A stretch of 62,259 nt of DNA, from positions 1 through 62,259 of IMG/VR virus record IMGVR_UViG_3300046003_005119. One strand, given 5' to 3'. The position numbers and the translations under genes are program-made. Position 1 is the stretch's first letter. Every line of letters begins with the position of its first letter. Below the pieces are notes generated by a model. It was given only the letters and a program-made list of their open reading frames with translations. It searched no databases and was not told the origin of the DNA. Origin of the DNA: a virus (taxonomy: Duplodnaviria; Caudoviricetes). Shown here piece by piece: positions 3,672 through 58,993 of the stretch.

Positions 3672-4954
3672 TATGCGAGAACTCCAAAGTGGTTGAACAT
3701 GAGATCCGAGTATTTCTCTCGGATGGATGGATCGTCAGTTCCACGAATCGTGTCGATGGAACCGAAGGCGAGATCGATGACTCGCTGAGCGACGATCTCA
3801 CGGTCGAACATCGGCAGAAGCTGAAGCGCAGCCTCGCGATAATTCGCGGCGAGTTGGTGGCTCATTTCGCCAACCTCGAGCACGAGATTCGCGTATTGCT
3901 CCGGATCGATATGACCATCAGGGATATCCCAGTAGTGAACACCAGCCTCGAAGATCGAATCACCCATTCCCATCGGTCTCGCAATGGGAATAGCACCATG
4001 GATCATAGCATCAACGACAACGCGGTTCCAATGACCGCCGACAGCGGCATATTTGCGCGACCAAGAAGGATCGACAAGAGCGCGGGCGCTTCCGAGCATC
4101 TCTTCCACTTTGGGCGTGTTCCAGTAGCCCTCATGAACCATACCATTCTCAAGAGCAACTTCCCAGAAGCGACCGCCCTGACCACGGCTATCAATCGGAT
4201 GGTAATACTCAGGCTTGCACTTGTCCTCGCTCGTCATGTATTGATACTCGATGCCGAGACCTGCGACATGCCGATATTCGTCGTCACGCTTGGGCGGCAT
4301 GTAGGCGATTGCCTCGATCAACTCGTGAGCATGTTTCCACGCCTTGAAGGTCTGCATGTTGACGAAGCCACGCTTGCGTTCTGCCCAAGAAGCGACCTTC
4401 CGCACTGGGTTGAACTGAGGATTCACGACCAGCGCCCGAGGTGTCGTCAGAAAGTTGGCTCCGTTCAGAGCGCAGTCATGAACGCAGGCAATACCAGAAA
4501 GCTGATCTTGGATCGCCAGAATATGCGGCGCTCCTGACTTTACGTTTCCGTCGTGAACGAAAGCAATCTGCTTGATCGATCTCGGCAGATCATACAGATT
4601 GGTCCATTCATGGTTTCCGAGGTTATCCTTGTTTTTGCTCGGAACAGGAACCGTCCAGATGATAAGGTCATAATCGACCATAATCTGTTTCGCGGTTGCC
4701 AGCGCAGCCGATCCCTTGTAGGCAATCCGGTCATTCCGACGGAAGTTCCAGCCCTTGCCTTGGTCGTGTGGGATTCCACTTGGGCCGACGATCCAGTCAC
4801 CAGTCTTGTTTTGTTCGTGAGCCTTAATGGCATAGACGAACTGTTTGAGATGGACTGTGTGTCCAAGATCTTTCAATCCACCGATCAACTGCTCAGTGTG
4901 ATTGATGATTCCACCAAGGTCCATGACCTGATGCAATGCAACGAGAATTCGCAT
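3671..4954 (-). CDS. GT-B fold glycosyltransferase (probable DNA-base glycosyltransferase)
   Basis: MRILVAL...GGI..H...L...L..LGHTV N-terminus; AFVHD; LVDPS...VVVDAMIHGAIPIA C-terminal GT4-like motif. Confidence 0.8.
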   Translation of the reverse strand: MRILVALHQVMDLGGIINHTEQLIGGLKDLGHTVHLKQFVYAIKAHEQNKTGDWIVGPSGIPHDQGKGWNFRRNDRIAYKGSAALATAKQIMVDYDLIIWTVPVPSKNKDNLGNHEWTNLYDLPRSIKQIAFVHDGNVKSGAPHILAIQDQLSGIACVHDCALNGANFLTTPRALVVNPQFNPVRKVASWAERKRGFVNMQTFKAWKHAHELIEAIAYMPPKRDDEYRHVAGLGIEYQYMTSEDKCKPEYYHPIDSRGQGGRFWEVALENGMVHEGYWNTPKVEEMLGSARALVDPSWSRKYAAVGGHWNRVVVDAMIHGAIPIARPMGMGDSIFEAGVHYWDIPDGHIDPEQYANLVLEVGEMSHQLAANYREAALQLLPMFDREIVAQRVIDLAFGSIDTIRGTDDPSIREKYSDLMFNHFGVLA

Positions 4955-11064: not shown

Positions 11065-11141
11065 TGGCGATCCTGGGAGGAATCGAACCCCCGACCCGCC
11101 GCTTAGAAGGCGGCTGCTCTATCCGGCTGAGCTACAGAATC
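11065..11141 (-). tRNA. trnR-UCU: tRNA-Arg(UCU)
   Basis: GATTCTG/CAGGATC acceptor stem, TAGCTCAG..GGATAGAGC D arm, anticodon loop CT-TCT-AA, GGTTCGATTCC T arm, encoded CCA. Confidence 0.95.
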
Positions 11142-31373: not shown

Positions 31374-32420
31374 TTATGCTTCGCGAGTCACCAGACGGGC
31401 GAACTTGATCATCTTGCGCTCCGGATAGACACGGTTCCAGGAAGTCGCATCATCCAGATCGCTGTTCGCCGGACCACCGTCGGGAACACCAGCCATCACG
31501 AAGGCGTGACCAGCGGGGTGCATGGACCACATGACGCGCGAATACAGCACGTCCTGACCGCCGCCATTGCCGCCTCCGGGCTTGCGATCGACTTCGGTCG
31601 CCACCGGAGGAGAGCCGACGCCGAGCTGAGTCGCGCCGGAGCCGAACAACCAAGTGTCATAGACGGAGCCCGTCCGAGGCAGACCGTCATCAACGATGAC
31701 TTCACGGCCCAAGAAGGTGGGAATCTGGATCTCGCCGCGAGCGTCGGGGATGAAGTCGATCAGGTTGTTTTTCTGCATCCGGTTGTAAACGACCGAGTGG
31801 ACAGCGACAGCAACCAGATCTTCCTGCGAATCGCCCATCGTTTGGGCGGTATCCAGGAAGGCTTCAGCCGAGAAGTTCGTCACACCATCGACGAAGGAAG
31901 CGCCGGAGATGTTGTTCGCATAGTCGCCCGAATCGTTCGCAGCGTTGTCAGCGATGACGCCGTTCCAGGTCGCGATGAAAGCGGTCTGCAGACGACGAAC
32001 CCAATAGGCCGAGACGCGGGAAGCGATCGACTGCATCGGATCAACACCAGCGAGAATCGCAGCGAGGTCGGTGGACGACCACGAGTTGTTCCGGTTGAGG
32101 CGAACAGCGATTTCTTTCAGAGTGCCGGTTTTCAGCGGATTCGGCGGACGAACAACGCCGGAGGGCAGCGAGGCGTCAGCGTCGGCGAACGGAACCGAGG
32201 TATCGGACGAGACGCGATCAGCGTCGTTATCCAGATCGCGGAACGACGGAACTTGGAAGGTCAAGCCACCGCCGCCGAGCAGGGTGTCCAAAGATTCCGA
32301 GCGAGCGAGCAGACCCGACTGAACCAGTCGCGACTTCTCTTCGGTCAGTTGCTGCATATAGGGGGTGAAGATCTCGGGAACGATAACGTCGCTCACCCGA
32401 GTCGCGGGACCTGCGGCCAT
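31374..32420 (-). CDS. Major capsid protein
   Basis: T.VSDVIVPEIF..Y, DPM..IA..V..YW, VIVDDGLP, W.RVY.E.K.I. Confidence 0.9.
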   Translation of the reverse strand: MAAGPATRVSDVIVPEIFTPYMQQLTEEKSRLVQSGLLARSESLDTLLGGGGLTFQVPSFRDLDNDADRVSSDTSVPFADADASLPSGVVRPPNPLKTGTLKEIAVRLNRNNSWSSTDLAAILAGVDPMQSIASRVSAYWVRRLQTAFIATWNGVIADNAANDSGDYANNISGASFVDGVTNFSAEAFLDTAQTMGDSQEDLVAVAVHSVVYNRMQKNNLIDFIPDARGEIQIPTFLGREVIVDDGLPRTGSVYDTWLFGSGATQLGVGSPPVATEVDRKPGGGNGGGQDVLYSRVMWSMHPAGHAFVMAGVPDGGPANSDLDDATSWNRVYPERKMIKFARLVTREA

Positions 32421-32507
32421 GAGATTGTCCTTTCATTGGCGCTTGAGGAAGGTGAGCGAACCCATGTTCGGCTCCAATGTCTGAAGCCAATGGCTCCAAT
32501 GACAATG

Positions 32508-32536
32508 ACCTTACCCTAGCGCCGCAAGAAAGGCAA
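32508..32536 (-). promoter_or_regulatory. sigma70-like promoter for the capsid gene
   Basis: TTGCCT-N17-TAAGGT. Confidence 0.5.
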
Positions 32537-32551
32537 TAGCTGTTTGATATG

Positions 32552-32590
32552 AAAATAGCCCGAGACGCGGGAGGAGGTGCGTCTCGGGCT
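32552..32590 (-). terminator. Intrinsic terminator-like hairpin with CCUCCUCCC loop
   Basis: 12-bp stem 32557-32568/32579-32590 followed by AUUUUC on the minus strand. Confidence 0.7.
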
Positions 32591-32962
32591 TCTCTACCAT
32601 CTAACCTCCCTCACCGGACAGTGAGATCTACGGTCGACATACCAGTTGTCCGTCTGGCTCGGTAGGATGTGAGGGGATGGTCTGCTGCTGACGCCCCTCG
32701 CGCCTCGTTCTGTCACCTCAGACCTTGAACCAATACGATACGGGAATACGTATTGACTTACCTTCATGACGGAAACTGGGGTGAACAGCGCCAGTCACAA
32801 AGTCCCGGTAACTAACTGAATTCCGAACGGCCTCCGGCACTGGGGACGTATATACCGGAGGCCGTTAGACCAGTGGAGCGCGGCGAGGTAGGCTACCAAA
32901 CCATCAAGCCGCGCACCCTTGGCCTTGCTTACACAATGCCCCAAGCGGCACGTCTAAGCAAG
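32552..32962 (-). ncRNA. Putative structured ncRNA (~410 nt)
   Basis: No ORF of 60 aa or more; at least six stems and a possible pseudoknot (see findings). Confidence 0.6.
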
Positions 32963-32963
32963 C

Positions 32964-33794
32964 TCATTTTTTCACGGTCGGGCGGGTCGCACCAACTTTC
33001 GATCCAGCAGCTTTCGCCATAGCCTCGGCGACAGCCATGCCTTTCTCACGAACGACAGCGCCCTGAGCAGTCATGTTCCAGGAATTCGCAGCCCACGGGT
33101 TCGCCTCACCACCGAAGCCACCACCACCGCCTCCGGCACCGCCACCAGCGGAGGCGGGCCACCAGTGAGGACGCTGTTTCTGCATTTCCTTCATGAAGTC
33201 TTTCACGTCGAGACCAGCGGTCAGCCCGTTCACACCAGCCTTGACGATGAACTTGCCGCTCTCGTCGCGCTCGAGATAGCTTTGGGCAATCAGCTCGATA
33301 TCAGCGATCGCGGTCGGAACAACCTTCATCTCGGTCGCCACAGCACGAATTGCATCGCTCATGTCACGACGTTGAAGGCCATTCTTCAGATCGTCGCGCT
33401 CCTGCTTCACGGTCGTCAACTCAGCAGTTGTGTCACGAAGTTGGCGTTCCAACGGAGCCGTCTTCTGAACCAGACGATTCTCGACAATCTGCTGGATCTT
33501 GGTCTCATCGATCTTTCCAGCCGCAGCAGCTTCGAGTTCAGCGACACGATCAAGCGTGGTCAAGACTTCATCAGGCTTCTTGCCCAAAGAAAGCCACGGC
33601 TTCAACGCTTCTTTCGCAGCGGCGTGATCAGCGCGTTCCTTGCGAAGGGCTTCCTGCACGTTGGAGACATCGGACTGAGTTTTCAGCCCATTGATTCCGG
33701 TCAGAACAGCCTTGCCATCTTTCTCCGTGAACAGAGAACGAAAGTTTTCGGGAACTGCCGAGATAGTGTCGTAGGAGAGTTCGAGCGTGTCCAT
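32964..33794 (-). CDS. Capsid scaffolding protein
   Basis: Coiled coil, Gly-rich linker, NPW...SWN.T.QG; between portal and capsid genes. Confidence 0.8.
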   Translation of the reverse strand: MDTLELSYDTISAVPENFRSLFTEKDGKAVLTGINGLKTQSDVSNVQEALRKERADHAAAKEALKPWLSLGKKPDEVLTTLDRVAELEAAAAGKIDETKIQQIVENRLVQKTAPLERQLRDTTAELTTVKQERDDLKNGLQRRDMSDAIRAVATEMKVVPTAIADIELIAQSYLERDESGKFIVKAGVNGLTAGLDVKDFMKEMQKQRPHWWPASAGGGAGGGGGGFGGEANPWAANSWNMTAQGAVVREKGMAVAEAMAKAAGSKVGATRPTVKK

Positions 33795-33818: not shown

Positions 33819-35330
33819 TCACTTGGCTGATTTTTGTTTCGGTTCCGAAGGCGGATCACCCGATATCGGATTGTCCGGGTCTTTGTTCGGTTGGTCTGGA
33901 GACAAATCGCCGGTCTTTGCCTTGGCGAAGACGAAGTCATCCTCGTCCTCCTTCTTGGCTTCAGCGATTTCTTCTTCGAACGAGCGAGTCGTCATGCGGC
34001 GCTTGCGAGCAAGATCGTGCATGGTTTTCGCGCTGATCGGGAAGCCGAGGTTGCGAGCAGTCGCCATTTCCACCATCGTCTGACCGGTGAGAGGCATCTC
34101 GCCAAATTCTTTGTTCGGTTTGACCTTGACTTCCTCTGGGTTCTCACCCATCCAGATAGCACAGGTCTTCAGGATGCTTTCGAGAGCGAGCGCACCAGTA
34201 TCAACAATCTGGTTCATGTCAGCGGTGCGAGCCGCGACACGGATCCTAAGGCTGTCACCGCTCTCACGTTCACGACTCGTCGTGTCCAGCGTTTGGGCTC
34301 CCATCGAGCCGGCACGGGCTTCAAGACGCTGAAGAGCTTCACGCTGCTCAGAAAGCCCAGTGGAGTTCACGCCGATATATTTCGCATCCGCGCCCATCGG
34401 GAGATCAACTCTCGCTCCGACACCAGTTCTCACCGTATCATCTTCAGCGAAGTTACCGCCGATTGTAACAAACGTGTCTTGACCCTGCATGAACAGATTC
34501 TGACGATAATCTGCTTCGGAGCGATAGATCGTCATGCAGAGGTTGCCGAGATCCAAAAGCGGCGGATCATCAACATCAGAAGTCACATCACACGAGTTGA
34601 TGATGACGAATGGAATATTCTGGAGAGTCTTGCCGCGCCAAGTCGGAGCCTTGAGTTTCGTGGTAGAATACTCGGTATCACCGAACACTCCCTGCACATA
34701 AAGACCACGAGATTCGTTTTCCAACTCGTCACCGATGATAAGAACACGATACTTCTCATCAGTCTCCCAGTTGAAGCCATCCGTCCGCTTGTTCTCAGTC
34801 TCGTCGAGGATGACGAAATTCAGAGTCTGAGGAATGACCTGATCAGAGCGGCCATCGTCCCAGTTGATGATTCTCTCTGCGACATACGTCGTCAGATACG
34901 GCAGATCTTCTCCAGGAGCAGGATTCGTCGGCAGATCAGCCATGAGACCGACTCGCCCAGTGATGAGCTGCTCAGTGTTGATCTTCCGGAGGAGAACTGG
35001 CAGCGGCTCACCCTTCGAACTCCGAATATTCTGCATCGATTTCGGTAGCTCGATGATCGGAGGCTGCGAGTGCATCATGCCGACTGCCATCTGCACAGCT
35101 TCACGCGTGAAGTTCGGAAATCTCGCTCGAACCTTCATGGCATTGTATGCCATCTGACCGACAGCAGTCTCAGACTTGCCGAATCCAGTCGCAATCTGAG
35201 AAGCAGTCGCTGGCAGATAAAGCGCGTTCTTCGACTTCACCTGACGCTCACCTCGATAAGCGTCACGCATGAGCGTCCAATCAGAATTGGTCGCCGAGAA
35301 CTGAGGATGTTTTGAGCTGAGAGTTACCAT
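33819..35330 (-). CDS. Portal protein (DUF4055-like)
   Basis: HPQ.....W..MRD...GE..VK....YLP, IPFV, PPLLDL; follows terminase. Confidence 0.85.
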   Translation of the reverse strand: MVTLSSKHPQFSATNSDWTLMRDAYRGERQVKSKNALYLPATASQIATGFGKSETAVGQMAYNAMKVRARFPNFTREAVQMAVGMMHSQPPIIELPKSMQNIRSSKGEPLPVLLRKINTEQLITGRVGLMADLPTNPAPGEDLPYLTTYVAERIINWDDGRSDQVIPQTLNFVILDETENKRTDGFNWETDEKYRVLIIGDELENESRGLYVQGVFGDTEYSTTKLKAPTWRGKTLQNIPFVIINSCDVTSDVDDPPLLDLGNLCMTIYRSEADYRQNLFMQGQDTFVTIGGNFAEDDTVRTGVGARVDLPMGADAKYIGVNSTGLSEQREALQRLEARAGSMGAQTLDTTSRERESGDSLRIRVAARTADMNQIVDTGALALESILKTCAIWMGENPEEVKVKPNKEFGEMPLTGQTMVEMATARNLGFPISAKTMHDLARKRRMTTRSFEEEIAEAKKEDEDDFVFAKAKTGDLSPDQPNKDPDNPISGDPPSEPKQKSAK

Positions 35331-35366: not shown

Positions 35367-36905
35367 TCAATAATGTCCAGAAGTTGAGCCAGTTCCGCCC
35401 ATATTCGAGATATGACGAACGAAATATCTCGTTTCGTCAGCGATGTGATCTTCGGCATCCGTGTTCACGTCGTCCTGATCTTTCTCATCTCTGGGCAAAA
35501 CTGGCACCGTTTCGATGAATGACAGACATTCGTCGAAGATGAACATTCCAGGCTGTTCACGAGGATACATGAGAAGGACATCCTCTTTAGTCGGATGTTT
35601 TCTCATCGTCGGATGAGCATTTTTCAGCCTCTGACGCATCTGGTTCCAGCCTGTCACACGCGATCCAGGACGTTTATCAGCCGGAGCCCACTGAATTCCA
35701 GGATACTTGTTTCCATCATCCAATCTGACTTTGACTTTCATGTCTGTCGCGATGCAGTTGCCGTTCTCAGCGGCGAAAATCTGCGAGTCAGCGACTCCGC
35801 CCTTCACTCGACACCAGTCTTCACCTGGAATTCTCCAGTTCCACGCCAGCTCTTTCTCGACAATTCCAGCCGCGATGTCAGTCGCGAGCATTCGGAGACC
35901 CTCGTTGGGCTTTCCTGTCGAGCCATACCATTCTTTCACACGGAAAGAGTCTCCCTTGATCGTCGAGCGCCATGATCCATCACGAAGCTGAACGTCTTCT
36001 CCATTCGAAATGGCCCACCAGCCCACAGAGAAAGGCTTCGATTCTCCCCAGTCGAAGGAGCGGATGATACGCCAATTCAACGGTATCTCAAAGTTTGAGA
36101 TTACATTAAATCGAGGTTCCCATACATCGTCGAACATACCGCCAGCGACGATGTCCCATGACCCTTCGAGCCATGCTTTCTTCTCCGCCGCGTTTCTCGC
36201 TGACGCTGCAATCTTCTGTTTGTATTCAGGATCGGCCTCGAGCAGAGCCGTGTTCTCGTCGATATGCGAGTGGATGCTCAGGCGAGGAGGCTCGGAGTTC
36301 CCTTCTTCATCTTTCAGATCGCGACGGACGATCATGTTCATGCTGTTGGGCTTGAACCTGTGTTTCACCCAGTTGTGACCGGGACCATATGGGTTCGTCG
36401 TCGCGCGAACCATACGAGGCATTCCCTTTGTCGACGAACGACAACACGAGAACATCCTCTTGTAGCCCTCATCATTCGCCCAGTTGCACAACTCTTCCCA
36501 ACCAATCCAGGGATATTCGTGACCGTGATAGTTCCAATAGTCGTCAGCTTTCATGAACTGGCGAAGCAGAAGCTGTTCTCCTCCAGGAAACGTCCAGACA
36601 TGCTCGGAGTTGTTGAATTTCGCTTCCGGCCAGATCTGAGGGATCCACTTTTTCGTTTTCGAGATAATATCCGTCAATTGTTTATACGTTTGACGGAATA
36701 GAATTCCCTTCCAGCCAGCCCCGTATCCCTTTCCGACGTGCATACAGAAGCTCATAATCAATGAGTCTGTCTTGCCGCCTCCGCGAGTTCCTTCGAACAA
36801 GACTTCGAAGATTGGGTGAGCTGCGAGGAAGGCCTCTTGGCTTCCTCGCATGGGTCGCCAAATCACGTTCTTGGGGAATTGCATACTCATTTCAGCACAT
36901 ACCAT
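35367..36905 (-). CDS. terL: Terminase large subunit
   Basis: GTRGGGKT, WEEL, TTNPYGPGH.WVK, RSFDWG, EDHIADE.RY. Start probably 36887 or 36881. Confidence 0.95.
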   Translation of the reverse strand: MVCAEMSMQFPKNVIWRPMRGSQEAFLAAHPIFEVLFEGTRGGGKTDSLIMSFCMHVGKGYGAGWKGILFRQTYKQLTDIISKTKKWIPQIWPEAKFNNSEHVWTFPGGEQLLLRQFMKADDYWNYHGHEYPWIGWEELCNWANDEGYKRMFSCCRSSTKGMPRMVRATTNPYGPGHNWVKHRFKPNSMNMIVRRDLKDEEGNSEPPRLSIHSHIDENTALLEADPEYKQKIAASARNAAEKKAWLEGSWDIVAGGMFDDVWEPRFNVISNFEIPLNWRIIRSFDWGESKPFSVGWWAISNGEDVQLRDGSWRSTIKGDSFRVKEWYGSTGKPNEGLRMLATDIAAGIVEKELAWNWRIPGEDWCRVKGGVADSQIFAAENGNCIATDMKVKVRLDDGNKYPGIQWAPADKRPGSRVTGWNQMRQRLKNAHPTMRKHPTKEDVLLMYPREQPGMFIFDECLSFIETVPVLPRDEKDQDDVNTDAEDHIADETRYFVRHISNMGGTGSTSGHY

Positions 36906-37832: not shown

Positions 37833-38315
37833 CTATGCCTTGGCAGGCGCAGGCGCGGGCGCGGCAGCGGTTGCCACAGGCGCGGCAGCGGCAGCGGCAG
37901 CGGTTGCCACAGGCACAAGCCAAGCCTGCGCGGCGGCCCATTGCGGCATGTTGTGGCGCTGCCAGCCCCCATTTGGCGGGGCAAGCGTGGGGCTTGCGGC
38001 TGCACTGGCCACCAGCGCGGCGCGGTATTGCGCCAAGGTAAAGCCGTTGGGCTGCACCTTGGCAAGCGCCTGTGCCACTTGGCAGGCAAAAGCGCGGTGG
38101 CCACGCTGCCCCACAGGCCAGCCAGCGCTTGCGGCTGCACTGTAGGGCATATAGGTGTAAAGTGCCGCGCCAATGGCCACAGCAACGGGCGCGGCGGTTG
38201 CGGTTGCAACGGGCGCGGCGGGCGCGGGCGCGGTTGCGGTTGCGGTTGCAACGGGCGCGGGGGCAGTAGCCTTGCCAGCGGTTGCGGTTGCGGTGTTTTT
38301 GTTAGCTTGTGCCAT
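37833..38315 (-). CDS. Ala/Thr/Pro-rich protein with no Asp or Glu (160 aa)
   Basis: Preceded by the AGGCTACCA leader and a promoter, followed by hairpins; lies wholly inside the GA/TC-free island. Confidence 0.7.
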   Translation of the reverse strand: MAQANKNTATATAGKATAPAPVATATATAPAPAAPVATATAAPVAVAIGAALYTYMPYSAAASAGWPVGQRGHRAFACQVAQALAKVQPNGFTLAQYRAALVASAAASPTLAPPNGGWQRHNMPQWAAAQAWLVPVATAAAAAAAPVATAAAPAPAPAKA

Positions 38316-38369
38316 TGTGGTAGCCTTTGGTTACAGGGTAGCAGCACCATTGCCGCTATGCCCTGCCCC

Positions 38370-38882: not shown

Positions 38883-39088
38883 GCCCGACCCTCCGCACGA
38901 ATGGCCTGACGCACGGCCAGCGGCGTCTCAACGCCGTGGGCGAAGGCGGGGCGGCAGACTTGGATGACGCCGCCGCACTGTGAAAAGCGACGAGTCAACG
39001 CGAAGATCTGACGCTGGAGCGACTGACGGTCGTCGGCCAGACGACCAGTGAACTCTGCGCGCTCTTTATTCCAAGGATTGATCTGCAT
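38879..39088 (-). CDS. Small early protein
   Basis: AGGCTACCAAATG leader. Confidence 0.65.
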   Translation of the reverse strand: MQINPWNKERAEFTGRLADDRQSLQRQIFALTRRFSQCGGVIQVCRPAFAHGVETPLAVRQAIRAEGRA

Positions 39089-39286
39089 TTGGTAGCCTTT
39101 CGGTTTGGGTTAAGTTGCCGTAAGACCATGTTATTACACAGAAATTTAAGAAGCAACTCATTTATATCCAATCCTCCGGACTCATATCGGAAGAGGCTCC
39201 CGATGAAGAAGATGAAGAAGATGAAGATGACGAGTCTCTCATCCAGATCTTCTTCATCATCTTCATCTTCTGTATGCTCTCAGACA

Positions 39287-39325: not shown

Positions 39326-39592
39326 CTACGAGGTCAGGACGATATCGGCGAGATACGACAGACCGTCGCAGATATCTTGGGTGGTAAAGATTTCGGCGCC
39401 GCTGACGGTGTGTGCGATGACCAAGCCGTTCTCCATGATGAACAACTGGCCCGAGACTTCGTAGCCTTCTTCAAAGTGACGCAGCCACACCATGGATTCG
39501 TCGATGATTTCAAAACGAACTTCGGGGATGACCTCATCACAGTGAAACTTGATGTCGGCGATTTCGGCGGGGGTGAACTTGCGATTGAGCAT
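39326..39592 (-). CDS. Small acidic early protein
   Basis: Leader motif before ATG 39592 (MLNRKFTPAEIADI). Confidence 0.65.
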   Translation of the reverse strand: MLNRKFTPAEIADIKFHCDEVIPEVRFEIIDESMVWLRHFEEGYEVSGQLFIMENGLVIAHTVSGAEIFTTQDICDGLSYLADIVLTS

Positions 39593-39749
39593 AGCTGGTA
39601 GCCTTTCTTGGGTTGCCTTGCCCTTACAGTATAGCCCAAAGAGGGTGGAGAGTGTAGCACTATGAATCGTGGTCTTCGTGGCCGGAAGATGATGAAGATC
39701 TCGTCGGAAGAGGCCGACGAGCATAGAGAAATCCCTATGCTCTGTCGGT

Positions 39750-39965
39750 TCAGGCTAGCGCCCCTGCAACTGCTTTTTCAAAGGCTTCCAGCTTTTCCAC
39801 CACTTCGACCATGTTCGTGCATGTCGGGCTCATGGTCATCTCGATCGTCCCCCAAAAGTTCATCAACTTCCGCGTGGGGTGGTGGTATTGCGCCACAAAT
39901 TCTTCTTCCGGATCCTGCCCTTCGCGGTAGTAAAGCAGGTAATCGCCAGTGTCTTTCGTCAGCAT
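39750..39965 (-). CDS. Small early protein
   Basis: Own promoter and leader motif. Confidence 0.65.
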   Translation of the reverse strand: MLTKDTGDYLLYYREGQDPEEEFVAQYHHPTRKLMNFWGTIEMTMSPTCTNMVEVVEKLEAFEKAVAGALA

Positions 39966-40000
39966 TTGGTAGCCCTTTCATTTGGTAGCCTTGCCCTTAC

Positions 40001-40144: not shown

Positions 40145-40378
40145 TCACTCGGCTCTTAGAATGAGCTTCATGAGCTCATACAGATCGTCACAGAACGTAA
40201 CGAACCCGAGCTCGCTGATATAGATATGCTGCTCTCCGCTGATGTAGCCGACGTCTCCCATATCTGTGAAGACTTTGTTATCCTCTGTATCAGCGATACC
40301 GTTACCGAGTGTGCAGATATACATGGAGATGTCCTCCAGTTCTGCTTCGGTGAAGTCACGCGGCTCATAGATTTTCAT
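40145..40378 (-). CDS. Small acidic early protein
   Basis: Own promoter and leader motif. Confidence 0.65.
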   Translation of the reverse strand: MKIYEPRDFTEAELEDISMYICTLGNGIADTEDNKVFTDMGDVGYISGEQHIYISELGFVTFCDDLYELMKLILRAE

Positions 40379-40412
40379 TTGGTAGCCCTTTCATTGGTAG
40401 CCTTGTCCTTAC

Positions 40413-43642: not shown

Positions 43643-43668
43643 GGTAGCCTCCATACGCTTCTGATACC

Positions 43669-44316: not shown

Positions 44317-44449
44317 ATCTTTTGTGTGCCTTTGGTTATGGGGGCAAGCGGCCCCTGTTTTGAGACCCCAACGGGGCCGTCAGAAGGCCGCTGGAGGGGC
44401 GTTGACTATGCCCCCGCTAGGGTGGTAGCCTAGCGGGTGCAAAGGGCCG

Positions 44450-44593: not shown

Positions 44594-44651
44594 GGTAGCC
44601 TCCATAGGTTTCAGAAGGCCAGTATAGCACTCAGAAGTCAAAGAAACAAAC

Positions 44652-47381: not shown

Positions 47382-47406
47382 GGTAGCCTCCTTGCTTTAC
47401 CCTACC

Positions 47407-48380: not shown

Positions 48381-48405
48381 GGTAGCCTCCTGGGTTTACT
48401 AGACC

Positions 48406-52109: not shown

Positions 52110-52175
52110 TTCGGTAGCCTCCATGGTATAACCTGTTTATACAGGCTACACCATAGAGGCTCAGAGCGACAAGTT

Positions 52176-56558: not shown

Positions 56559-56583
56559 GGTAGCCTCCTTAGCTGCTTTATAC

Positions 56584-56614: not shown

Positions 56615-58993
56615 TCAAAATGGGTCTTCAGGTTGGTCAAGATCGAGTTGAACAGGATCTTGCCAATCGATATGTCCGTAGATCTTCGACCAAGACTCTC
56701 TGCAAGAATCTAATGTTCCAAAATCATAGAAATACGCTCTCCGAGCAACCCTATGAACCATCCCTCTATCGTCCTGCTCTTCGACTGTGATCCTTCTTTG
56801 AGTTTTGCCGATATGAGGGCAAACTCGTGAAAGAAAGCGGCCGAGGGCAGTTTCATTTCCGCGGCGTGAGAACTTCCACTTCTCAGCATACATCGTGAAA
56901 TCGTGAGTCACGGCGTCGCAGGGAATATCTCTCTGCCATTGGGCATCCTGATCCAGAATTCTCCCGTTCTGGAGTTTACGGAACCACCATTCTTCATCGA
57001 TGCCCATGGAAAGCAGCTTCTGCTCCTGAAGCGCCGAGGTGTCAGGGACATCGCGAACTTCGAAGCCTTTCAGGTCAATGGTCTGGAGATGGTAGAGAAG
57101 GGCTTCGAAGCCTCCGTTCTCCATTTGTTCAATCAGAGCCTTGAAGAACTTCTTGTCCTGCTTATTCTTCTCTCCCATGTCCAGCATGAAGTAACGACGT
57201 TCGTCTCCAGTAGCACGAATGACATGAGGGTCATTCGCGGCCATGATCAGGTGAACGAAGTTCGGGTAGGGTTCGGTGTCGACTCCTTTGGCTTCGATTG
57301 GGATACTGTCTTCTGTGACGAGCATCTTGAGGACAGATTCGTGTCTTTTGTCGCCAGCGAAGAAAGCCTCGTCGGCGAAAAGTAGGATGACGTCCCGTAG
57401 GTGAGCGTTGAAGTTCCCAACAAGGTGCGACGGATTCGCGACATGAAGATGGTGTCTCCCAAATAGTCTGCCGAACATGGTGGCGAAAAGGGACTTACCA
57501 GTTCCCTTCCCACCTCGAAGAACGATAGCAACTTCTCCAGGAGAAGCAGGGTTCTGAACTGCCCTCGCCATCCATTTGATGAGATAGTCATAGTAGGCTG
57601 TATTTCCTGAACACACGTTGTTCAGGATATGTGCGAGATACAGTGAGCAATCTCCAGGAACTGGTTCAACATTGAAGCCTCTCCACAGATTGTAAACTCC
57701 TGGCTGATCTCCCTGAGGCATGAACTTCATCGTATCGAACTGCCTCCTCATCTTGTGGTTGATCCAATACTTTCCAAGAGGAACCATAATCGGCAAACCT
57801 TTGTCGGTCGTGCCAACTTGGATCATGATGTTTGAATAACGATTACGCAGATCTTCAAAGGATGAGAGAGTAATTCTCGTCCTGTGCAGGATATCATCCG
57901 TGATCTCTTCAATCACGCGACATTTCCCACCGATGTTTCCAATGATTGCGTGACGATCGTTCATCATTGTGAGGTTCGGATCCTCACAATACTCTTTCGC
58001 TCGCTTAATCTGTCTCCGACAATATCTGTCTGCTCCACCCTTCAGTTCGATGACCGACGATGAAATGCCCCAGTCAGGATCGGTCAAAAGAGCGTAGATC
58101 ACATGATCAGGAACGTTGCAGCGGACCAGAGAACAAACGCAATCGAACACCCAAGCAGAGCGGGAGTTATCGTCCTTCTTGGGCTGATCAGGGTGCATCC
58201 CTTGGGCAACAATCACCTTCACTCGATCTGGCACGTTCCACTGATCAAGTTCTGATAGATCTTGTATCTTCTCGACGTTTCCTGGAATATCGACAGTGAC
58301 ACCGTATTCACCACCGTCGCGAGAAGGTCCAGCGGTCTGGACAGCCTGAGCTTTCTTGAACTCCGACAACTCGTAGCTGTTCGTTGTGAATTGCAAGAGA
58401 ACAGCAAGTTCCTCGACTCGACCTTTCTTGCGTTTCTTTGCGTCAGGAACATTGATCGATCCAGGAAGTCGCATGATTCGATCGACGTTGTGACAGTGGT
58501 CACCACCAAAGATCTGCTCGAGGCGTTTGTTGTAGAGTTCGAAATCCTCGGCGAGTTTTGTATCACCATCGATCTTCACCGGAGTCTTCAGACGCCAGAA
58601 CGCCTGATATCCGCCGCCAGAGAATATGATACAGGTTGGATTAGGTAGACCCTTCGGCAAACGATCTGTCAACATGCCCAAGGCGCGAGCACGTTCTTCC
58701 TGAAGGTCCTGACCATCTGCGGGGTCGATATCAATATGCAGCCACTCAGCGGAAGCGATATCTTCTTTGTTCGCCTTACTCGTGAGGTTGCCCTTCACAG
58801 AGTTGACATGGAAATAGATATTCCGATCGCCGTTGTATTTCTCGATCCAGGAGTAAGCCTCTTTCTCCTGTTTGCTCGAGAACGTAGTTGTCGTGATGCC
58901 TTTCCGATCGGTGCTTATGCTCGTGAGAACCCACGGTCCGTTTGGATTCCACTTTTTGAGGAACTCTACTGAACGCTTGCTGTCACCCTGCAT
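56615..58993 (-). CDS. Primase-helicase (RepB-like AEP primase plus SF3-type NTPase)
   Basis: HIDID, SGGGYQAFW, RIMRLPG; GGKGTGKS, FADE, ERRY. Confidence 0.9.
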   Translation of the reverse strand: MQGDSKRSVEFLKKWNPNGPWVLTSISTDRKGITTTTFSSKQEKEAYSWIEKYNGDRNIYFHVNSVKGNLTSKANKEDIASAEWLHIDIDPADGQDLQEERARALGMLTDRLPKGLPNPTCIIFSGGGYQAFWRLKTPVKIDGDTKLAEDFELYNKRLEQIFGGDHCHNVDRIMRLPGSINVPDAKKRKKGRVEELAVLLQFTTNSYELSEFKKAQAVQTAGPSRDGGEYGVTVDIPGNVEKIQDLSELDQWNVPDRVKVIVAQGMHPDQPKKDDNSRSAWVFDCVCSLVRCNVPDHVIYALLTDPDWGISSSVIELKGGADRYCRRQIKRAKEYCEDPNLTMMNDRHAIIGNIGGKCRVIEEITDDILHRTRITLSSFEDLRNRYSNIMIQVGTTDKGLPIMVPLGKYWINHKMRRQFDTMKFMPQGDQPGVYNLWRGFNVEPVPGDCSLYLAHILNNVCSGNTAYYDYLIKWMARAVQNPASPGEVAIVLRGGKGTGKSLFATMFGRLFGRHHLHVANPSHLVGNFNAHLRDVILLFADEAFFAGDKRHESVLKMLVTEDSIPIEAKGVDTEPYPNFVHLIMAANDPHVIRATGDERRYFMLDMGEKNKQDKKFFKALIEQMENGGFEALLYHLQTIDLKGFEVRDVPDTSALQEQKLLSMGIDEEWWFRKLQNGRILDQDAQWQRDIPCDAVTHDFTMYAEKWKFSRRGNETALGRFLSRVCPHIGKTQRRITVEEQDDRGMVHRVARRAYFYDFGTLDSCRESWSKIYGHIDWQDPVQLDLDQPEDPF

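Follow-up and report, generated by a model that had tools for sequence, protein, structure and literature searches.

A conserved hairpin complementary to a start-site tag: a candidate trans-acting antisense RNA in freshwater tailed phages

To our knowledge, the regulatory RNAs described in phages target either a single gene of the phage (OOP, sar, c4) or genes of the host (PreS, VpdS), and the only known regulators that control early phage messages globally via their start regions are proteins (T4 RegA and RegB). In bacteria, GcvB and PinT are multi-target small RNAs (sRNAs) that use one short seed against many messages at or near their ribosome-binding sites, and PinT has been described as a post-transcriptional timer. 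The c4 RNA of phages P1 and P7 is processed by RNase P. According to one review, c4 pairs in trans around the ribosome-binding site of the ant/icd mRNA, with the complementary bases in loops of a structured RNA; lambda OOP, P22 sar and lambda aQ are small cis-antisense RNAs that lower phage gene expression by base pairing, and VpdS affects both phage and host mRNAs (PMC12197685). In T4, many early and middle messages are reduced together via a short shared feature of their start regions, by the translational repressor RegA and by the endoribonuclease RegB, which cuts GGAG in early Shine-Dalgarno (SD) regions (PMC3014915).

The window, which is the whole stretch of DNA analysed here, is a 62,259-bp virus record with an estimated completeness of 98%. 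All genes given an identity by family scans are located on its minus strand (Table 1). Metagenomes from lakes and other aquatic habitats contain near-identical DNA in at least two studies (X2, X3), including an X3 contig that is 98% identical. The nearest cultured phages are the Pseudomonas phages Iggy and PBPA162, with which the shared DNA amounts to only about 120 nt in the capsid gene. In the 543-nt intergenic gap between the scaffold and capsid genes sits a hairpin, called here the anti-tag hairpin, whose loop is complementary over 8–12 nt to 13 start sites on the same strand, 5–24 kb away.

The closest known systems are c4 of P1/P7 and, for the logic, RegA/RegB of T4. Like c4, the window element is a candidate phage-encoded trans RNA with its complementary bases in a structured stem-loop. 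The window has 13 tagged start sites belonging to separate genes, whereas c4 acts on what is essentially a single transcript and functions in prophage immunity. No Rfam family matched the hairpin. The C4 antisense RNA model had no match in the window at the gathering threshold, and none with E-values up to 10 in 32300–33100 or in positions 3700–4010 of the related locus L008. In T4 the regulators RegA and RegB are proteins, whereas the candidate reader of the shared start-region feature in the window is an RNA loop. OOP, sar and aQ lie opposite a single, fully complementary target, whereas the targets in the window are on the strand of the hairpin at other loci, an arrangement that is not cis-antisense and that agrees with a trans-encoded sRNA whose seed is matched to distant start regions. 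GcvB, PinT, VpdS and PreS have mostly host targets with degenerate sites, whereas the window has a near-identical tag in the SD-AUG spacer of the phage's own genes. A limited word search of the literature returned no paper on a phage sRNA that targets a tag common to several start sites, which does not exclude that one exists.

We consider the chances about even that the element is a trans-acting antisense small RNA occluding tagged ribosome-binding sites, as far as this can be judged from sequence. The fuller proposal falls slightly short of even: a phage trans sRNA that would be the RNA counterpart of RegA/RegB, its loop UGGUAGCC reading GGCUACC in the SD-AUG spacer of the leading gene in each of about a dozen promoter cassettes and setting translation of the whole small-gene class, with the tag-loop pair kept across a clade of freshwater phages.

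Table 1. Positions of the anti-tag hairpin, its flanking elements, the start-site tags and the genes with family identity in the window
Feature	Position	Strand	Details
Major capsid protein gene	31374–32420	minus	family identity
Promoter-like TTGCCT-N17-TAAGGT	32508–32536	minus	before major capsid gene
Strong intrinsic terminator	32549–32590	minus	12-bp stem 32557–32590, then AUUUUCAU
Hairpin 3	32826–32866	minus	15-bp GC-rich stem directly 3' of anti-tag hairpin, without U tract
Outer hairpin extension	32867–32925	minus	AGGCCA with UGGUCU, plus GG with CC; minimum-free-energy fold of gap
Anti-tag hairpin	32878–32914	minus	7-bp GC stem (32878–32884 with 32908–32914), 23 nt enclosed with UUUGGUAGCCU
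Loop core UGGUAGCC	32891–32898	minus	complement of tag GGCUACCA
Hairpin 1	32924–32963	minus	inverted repeat CTTGCTTA/TAAGCAAG; spans promoter-like element
-10-like CATTGT	32933–32938	minus	17 nt past -35-like hexamer
-35-like TTGCTT	32956–32961	minus	3 nt past scaffold stop codon
Scaffold gene	32964–33794	minus	family identity
Portal gene	33819–35330	minus	family identity
Large terminase gene	35367–36905	minus	family identity
Tag GGCUACC	38319–38325	minus	3 nt before ATG of 160-aa gene 37833–38315
Tag	39091–39097	minus	ATG 39086–39088; 11/11 match with loop
Tag	39597–39603	minus	ATG 39590–39592
Two tandem tags	39968–39990	minus	ATGs 39979–39981 and 39963–39965
Two tandem tags, duplicated cassette	40381–40402	minus	ATGs 40392–40394 and 40376–40378
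Tag GGAGGCUACC-AUG	43643–43649	minus	113-aa gene
Tag GGAGGCUACC-AUG	44594–44600	minus	47-aa gene
Tag GGAGGCUACC-AUG	47382–47388	minus	52-aa gene
Tag GGAGGCUACC-AUG	48381–48387	minus	79-aa gene
Tag GGAGGCUACC-GAA-AUG	52113–52119	minus	63-aa gene
Tag GGAGGCUACC-AUG	56559–56565	minus	76-aa gene
DNA polymerase, primase, ligase, exonuclease, methyltransferase and small terminase genes	within 40.6–62.2 kb	minus	family identity

The minus strand reads GCGCGGC-UUGAUGGUUUGGUAGCCUACCUC-GCCGCGC at 32878–32914, exactly as the initial annotation had described this GC-rich hairpin, and the structure is conserved and covarying in relatives. The same annotation had the core displayed in a loop. The core does lie within the nucleotides enclosed by the stem, but weak internal pairs are predicted among these 23 nt, and in the folds the 8-mer is fully unpaired with a probability of 0.03 in the window and 0.000–0.26 in relatives; the predicted cost of opening it in the window is 2.1 kcal/mol. 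When TGGTA is forced to be single-stranded, folding gives a 6-nt apical loop closed by a 3-bp helix, with the sequence UUGGUA in the window and NUGGUA across family members. The core is predicted to be partly self-paired and the loop not fully open. The hairpin is not an intrinsic terminator, as its minus-strand 3' flank (UCCACUGGUC) has no U run and the terminator scan did not report it. UGGUAG presumably resembles tRNA D-loops; ARAGORN and Rfam detected only one tRNA in the window (tRNA-Arg, 11065–11141), and the hairpin is not a tRNA or tRNA-like.

A capsid-protein search yielded 80 related loci. Of the 22 closest loci (capsid protein identity of 79% or more), 17 have a hairpin with apical (N)UGGUAGCC directly behind the scaffold stop codon; none of the other 58, more distant loci has one. 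The close relatives L004, L005, L014, L015 and L021 lack it and have other hairpins or short gaps, on contigs too short for the early genes. The module was not found in cultured relatives: in phage Iggy the gap is 118 nt long without the hairpin, the scaffold stop codon is succeeded by TTGACA-N17-TAAGCT, and GGCTACC has 12 forward and 11 reverse copies. A nucleotide search of the gap against the relatives gave a match only in its last 80 nt, which belong to the capsid-gene leader.

The family comprises 17 distinct hairpin sequences, including two from metagenome contigs found by a scaffold search, and a second copy in G001. A pattern scan picked out 18 new stretches, mainly chance matches within coding sequence; three were true hits, and two of these gave new sequences (L139, L143). 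The core is UGGUAGCC in 16 of the 17 distinct sequences and UGGUAGUC in the remaining one, an invariance that is partly circular, since family members were found with a pattern containing the core. The 5' arms differ in all 17 sequences, and each of these keeps at least nine enclosing base pairs. Changes on both sides occur in four of eight helix pairs in the model-fitted alignment. The covariation score is 0.284, compared with 0.108 in shuffled alignments (reached by 0 of 500) and 0.03–0.17 for slid partners; the alignment used (A3) leans towards structure and includes two probable false hits (L047, and L002 at 1546). The covariance model R1 recovered known members only at marginal E-values, missed L017 and L018 and was the source of these two probable false hits. 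Altogether, there is good support for the conservation of a structured RNA element. The second copy in G001, whose loop is the same (GGUAUGGUAGCC), is present on the sense strand at about 58440–58500 (L082 534–562, minus strand), near the end of this 59-kb relative and outside its scaffold-capsid gap.

The hairpin is preceded by a sigma70-like promoter pattern, which, read from the sequence, would place the RNA start at or just before the hairpin base. A cTTG(C/T)NN hexamer lies within a few bases of the scaffold stop codon in all 12 relatives examined, and a permissive TANNNT-like hexamer follows 16–18 nt on in all 12, although the match in L017 is doubtful; the spacing is 17 nt in 11 of the 12. 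The call of this first promoter uses our own permissive pattern; a consensus scanning tool reported no promoter before the hairpin and no sense terminator after it in the window and three relatives. Counterparts of hairpin 3 have a U-rich tail in L008, L011 and L016, and the tail is weak or absent in the window, L002, L003 and L018. In the relatives scanned, the tool found no sense-strand terminator after the hairpin and a weak antisense terminator-like site at the same place in L008. The first good terminator in the window is located about 290 nt downstream of the hairpin and has only weak, sub-threshold Rfam matches. The promoter-like element that follows it has homologues of the form TTGCAA/TTGTCA-N17-TATGGT in relatives, one of which (L016) was called by the scanning tool.

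Several other elements occur in the same gap. Downstream of the sigma70-like promoter of the capsid gene, the leader hairpin GCGAACAUGGGUUCGC (32454–32474) is kept, and relatives also have GAUGACGUGAYGUCAUC in the same leader. A GC-rich terminator-like hairpin before the capsid promoter has C(C/G)G(N)U(U/C)GAG where its 5' arm meets the loop in L002, L004, L006, L008, L013–L016, L018 and L019, among them relatives without the anti-tag hairpin. An extra 230 nt around 32590–32700 (minus strand) make the window gap the longest of the family. A module within them recurs only in L019/L020 (L019 at about 3760–3900) and contains CUGUCCGG, UGGUAG and a terminator with a CCUCCUCCC loop; the best Rfam match in the region is ar14, at 33.6 bits against a threshold of 58.8. 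A contig of run X4 skips 32666–32820.

The tag complementary to the loop is frequent and strongly strand-biased. The initial annotation had reported 11/11 matches between loop and leader at 39088–39098 and 39981–39991, and both are exact copies of AGGCTACCAAA on the minus strand. With the plus-strand copy at 32890–32900 they make three, against a shuffle expectation of 0.01 (0 of 100 shuffles reached three). The shorter AGGCTACC has 14 copies, of which 13 are on the minus (gene) strand and one on the plus strand at 32890, which bears out the earlier remark that the hairpin holds the sole copy in the opposite orientation; 0.5 copies are expected, and none of 100 shuffles reached 14. GGCTACC itself has 16 minus-strand copies and one on the plus strand. 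Among the sense-strand octamers of the genome, GGCTACCA ranks second in frequency, with 15 sense copies and one antisense copy. Two other octamers, TGGAACTG (14 sense and 0 antisense in the octamer count; 13 sense sites listed) and TCTTGGGC (13 sense, 4 antisense), are also strand-biased; they lie within coding regions without a common context, and words similar to TCTTGGGC are frequent in the related genomes G010 and G011.

The tag is anchored to start codons. An ATG follows GGCTACC within 0–4 nt in 13 of the 16 minus-strand copies, and the tag occupies the SD-to-AUG spacer. Six cases have the form GGAGGCUACC-AUG, one of them with a 3-nt GAA spacer, and the others are AA(A/G)GGCUACC-(N1-4)-AUG. 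Each tag copy is preceded by a sigma70-like pattern (TTGTCA or TTGCTT, 17 nt, CATACT or TATACT), the distance from the -10 hexamer to the tag is 9–23 nt, and the sequence between the -10 and the SD is not conserved. The two distances indicate a constraint on the translation start region and not on the promoter. This bears on the possibility that GGCTACC is a duplex-DNA site for a phage or host DNA-binding protein, with 32890 as one more site in the other orientation. Any site read on duplex DNA necessarily appears as its reverse complement on the opposite strand, and the tags lie downstream of -10 elements, where a repressor could act. Against such a site, the tag is fixed to the ATG, 16 of the 17 copies share one orientation, the tag persists within coding sequence as ATGGCTACC in relatives, and the copy in the opposite orientation is always in a hairpin with covarying arms, which duplex DNA binding does not need. 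We regard a DNA site as improbable.

Tagged genes are the first small genes after each promoter cassette, with products of 47–113 aa and one of 160 aa; a family scan of eight tagged proteins found no family for seven. The initial annotation had placed the motif at about a dozen early genes. The number agrees with the 13 sites just before an ATG, but five of the tags fall in the stretch from the small to the large terminase gene and no replication gene is tagged, so that "early regulon" was that reader's interpretation. Nor is a whole early regulon tagged, since the tag is limited to the first small gene per promoter cassette in the window, and relatives have only 1–6 tags. An unbiased search for other leader tags in relatives outside the clade returned only ordinary Shine-Dalgarno words.

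At 39963–39990 and 40376–40402, each cassette has tandem tags 15–16 nt apart with separate ATGs in different frames, both open for 66–77 codons. In contigs of the metagenome runs X4 and X6, position 39994 is followed directly by 40407; the 412 nt between them are missing, and the two sides have 35 nt in common at the junction. These strains lack one duplicated promoter-plus-tag cassette, which suggests that genes are gained or lost at the repeated cassettes. Just after the tagged 47-aa gene, at 44410–44440 (minus strand), a sense copy of the tag is found in the loop of a 9-bp hairpin (CCCGCUAGG/CCUAGCGGG), which might interact loop to loop with the anti-tag hairpin, act as its sponge, or be no more than a terminator.

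The 8-mer conserved in the loop is exactly the reverse complement of the octamer that ranks second on the sense strand. In duplex predictions against 116 start regions of the phage, the nine tagged genes present in our gene calls were the best nine, at -19.7 to -22.0 kcal/mol. Among 200 shuffled loops, a mean of 1.26 and a maximum of five start regions reached -19.5 kcal/mol or lower, and none reached nine. Only the strict cut-off separates the real loop, as at -15 kcal/mol it has 15 start regions compared with a shuffled mean of 14.4. A duplex scan of the whole transcript with the 23-nt loop at -12 kcal/mol gave 754 sense and 696 antisense sites, among them non-start sites of equally low duplex energy; it was non-discriminating and was dropped.

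Hairpin and tag also occur together. At least one start-site tag is present in all eight records with the hairpin, seven of them independent (13, 6, 1, 1, 1, 2, 4 and 2 tags), and none in the six near-complete genomes without it; none of these records keeps a start-site tag without the hairpin, the situation that the initial annotation had named as contrary to its model. Presence of the hairpin follows one clade, so that this co-occurrence is not phylogenetically independent and counts as a single event. Since the relatives have few tags (6, 4, 2, 1, 1 and 1), the large regulon is special to the window genome. The compensatory co-change of loop and leader that the initial annotation had proposed to look for in related phages is not visible, given the invariant core; the single variant loop, GGUAGUC in G002 (core UGGUAGUC), still pairs with GGCUACC via G-U, and the G002 record contains no GACTACC. 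Co-variation of the flanks is weak: targets of G000 and G001 slightly prefer their own loop over each other's, and all pair best with the loop of G003.

Gene 37833–38315 is the only tagged gene with orthologues traced in relatives. Orthologues identified by tblastn have the tag upstream of the ATG in G000 and G002 and within the coding sequence, as ATGGCTACC, in G004 and G006. A ATGGCTACC start, recognised by its sequence, is also present in G001, G005/G007 and L124. The retention of GGCTACC at the start of this gene, whether outside or inside the coding sequence, points to selection at the nucleotide level. Overall, a functional tie of the hairpin to the tag is likely.

In the preferred reading, the hairpin would be the seed-bearing stem-loop of a small-RNA module that a clade of uncultured tailed phages from freshwater carries just behind the scaffold gene. 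This module would consist of the sigma70-like promoter pattern, the hairpin with apical UGGUAGCC and a GC-rich hairpin or terminator, and read-through from the portal-scaffold transcript would also cover it. The loop would pair with GGCUACC(A) in the SD-AUG spacer, or over the AUG in some relatives, of promoter-proximal small genes. The proposed duplex of 9–12 bp would cover the ribosome-binding site and block 30S binding, so that translation of all tagged messages would drop together, and duplex-triggered decay may come next. Pairing that spans positions -8 to +1 would be expected to repress. We infer from these data a discrete RNA species, its pairing in the cell, the repressive effect and the time of action. 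The RNA had been called late in the initial annotation; the module promoter pattern, TTGCTT-N17-CATTGT, has the same form as those of tagged genes (TTGCTT/TTGTCA-N17-CATACT), and timing is therefore not readable from the sequence.

The pairing might be real and follow a logic other than timed shut-off, which we judge unlikely although it is the strongest of the alternatives. Three versions may be distinguished. A constitutive RNA from its own sigma70-like promoter could block the tagged starts of incoming related phages in immunity or exclusion, as P1/P7 c4 does on ant. The tag of gene 37833–38315 and the post-scaffold hairpin could instead pair within one long transcript as a cis 5'-3' contact. 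Finally, many tagged messages could titrate the RNA as a sponge. The RNA need not be late, given a module promoter pattern of the same class as those of tagged genes, and cross-reaction between relatives is expected from a core identical across them; the comparison with c4 is taken from a review (PMC12197685). The cis version is favoured by the fact that gene 37833–38315, with the only tag having traced orthologues, heads the gene row leading to the scaffold gene and has a promoter-like TTGGCT-N18-TATATA, seen by eye. On the other side, no integrase, repressor or other sign of a resident state was found among the 25 proteins scanned, which are a minority of the genes, and a cis contact over about 5.4 kb is unnecessary for explaining 13 tags. 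The sequence does not separate these versions from the preferred antisense-repressor reading.

Somewhat less probable still is that the hairpin has a structural role in the scaffold message, for instance in stabilising its 3' end, in processing or within a termination or anti-termination signal read by a protein, and that its complementarity to the tag is without regulatory consequence. Consistent with such a role, a row of strong hairpins lies between two highly expressed structural genes (z-score of the gap fold -7.9), terminator-like hairpins come next in relatives, and the predicted apical loop has only 6 nt. The absence of a U run after the hairpin and the lack of the hairpin in five close relatives argue against it. 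It would also require that an independently conserved 8-mer matches, as reverse complement, the strand-specific octamer ranking second on the sense strand (15 sense, 1 antisense), for which the chance is about 1 in 65,000 per register.

The decoy suggested in the initial annotation, a plus-strand RNA whose loop AGGCUACCAAA would mimic the leader for a leader-binding protein, is very improbable, for although TCATTTTTT follows hairpin 1 on the plus strand and L008 has the antisense terminator-like site, all genes identified by family are on the minus strand, no plus-strand promoter was called near the hairpin, and this T run is the complement of the C-terminal lysine codons of the scaffold gene and is not retained by all relatives.

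If the antisense-repressor reading is true, the phage would coordinate a class of its genes in a new way, through a conserved RNA loop that fits a tag at many of their start sites. The regulator and its tag would also make a compact, portable pair for synthetic biology.
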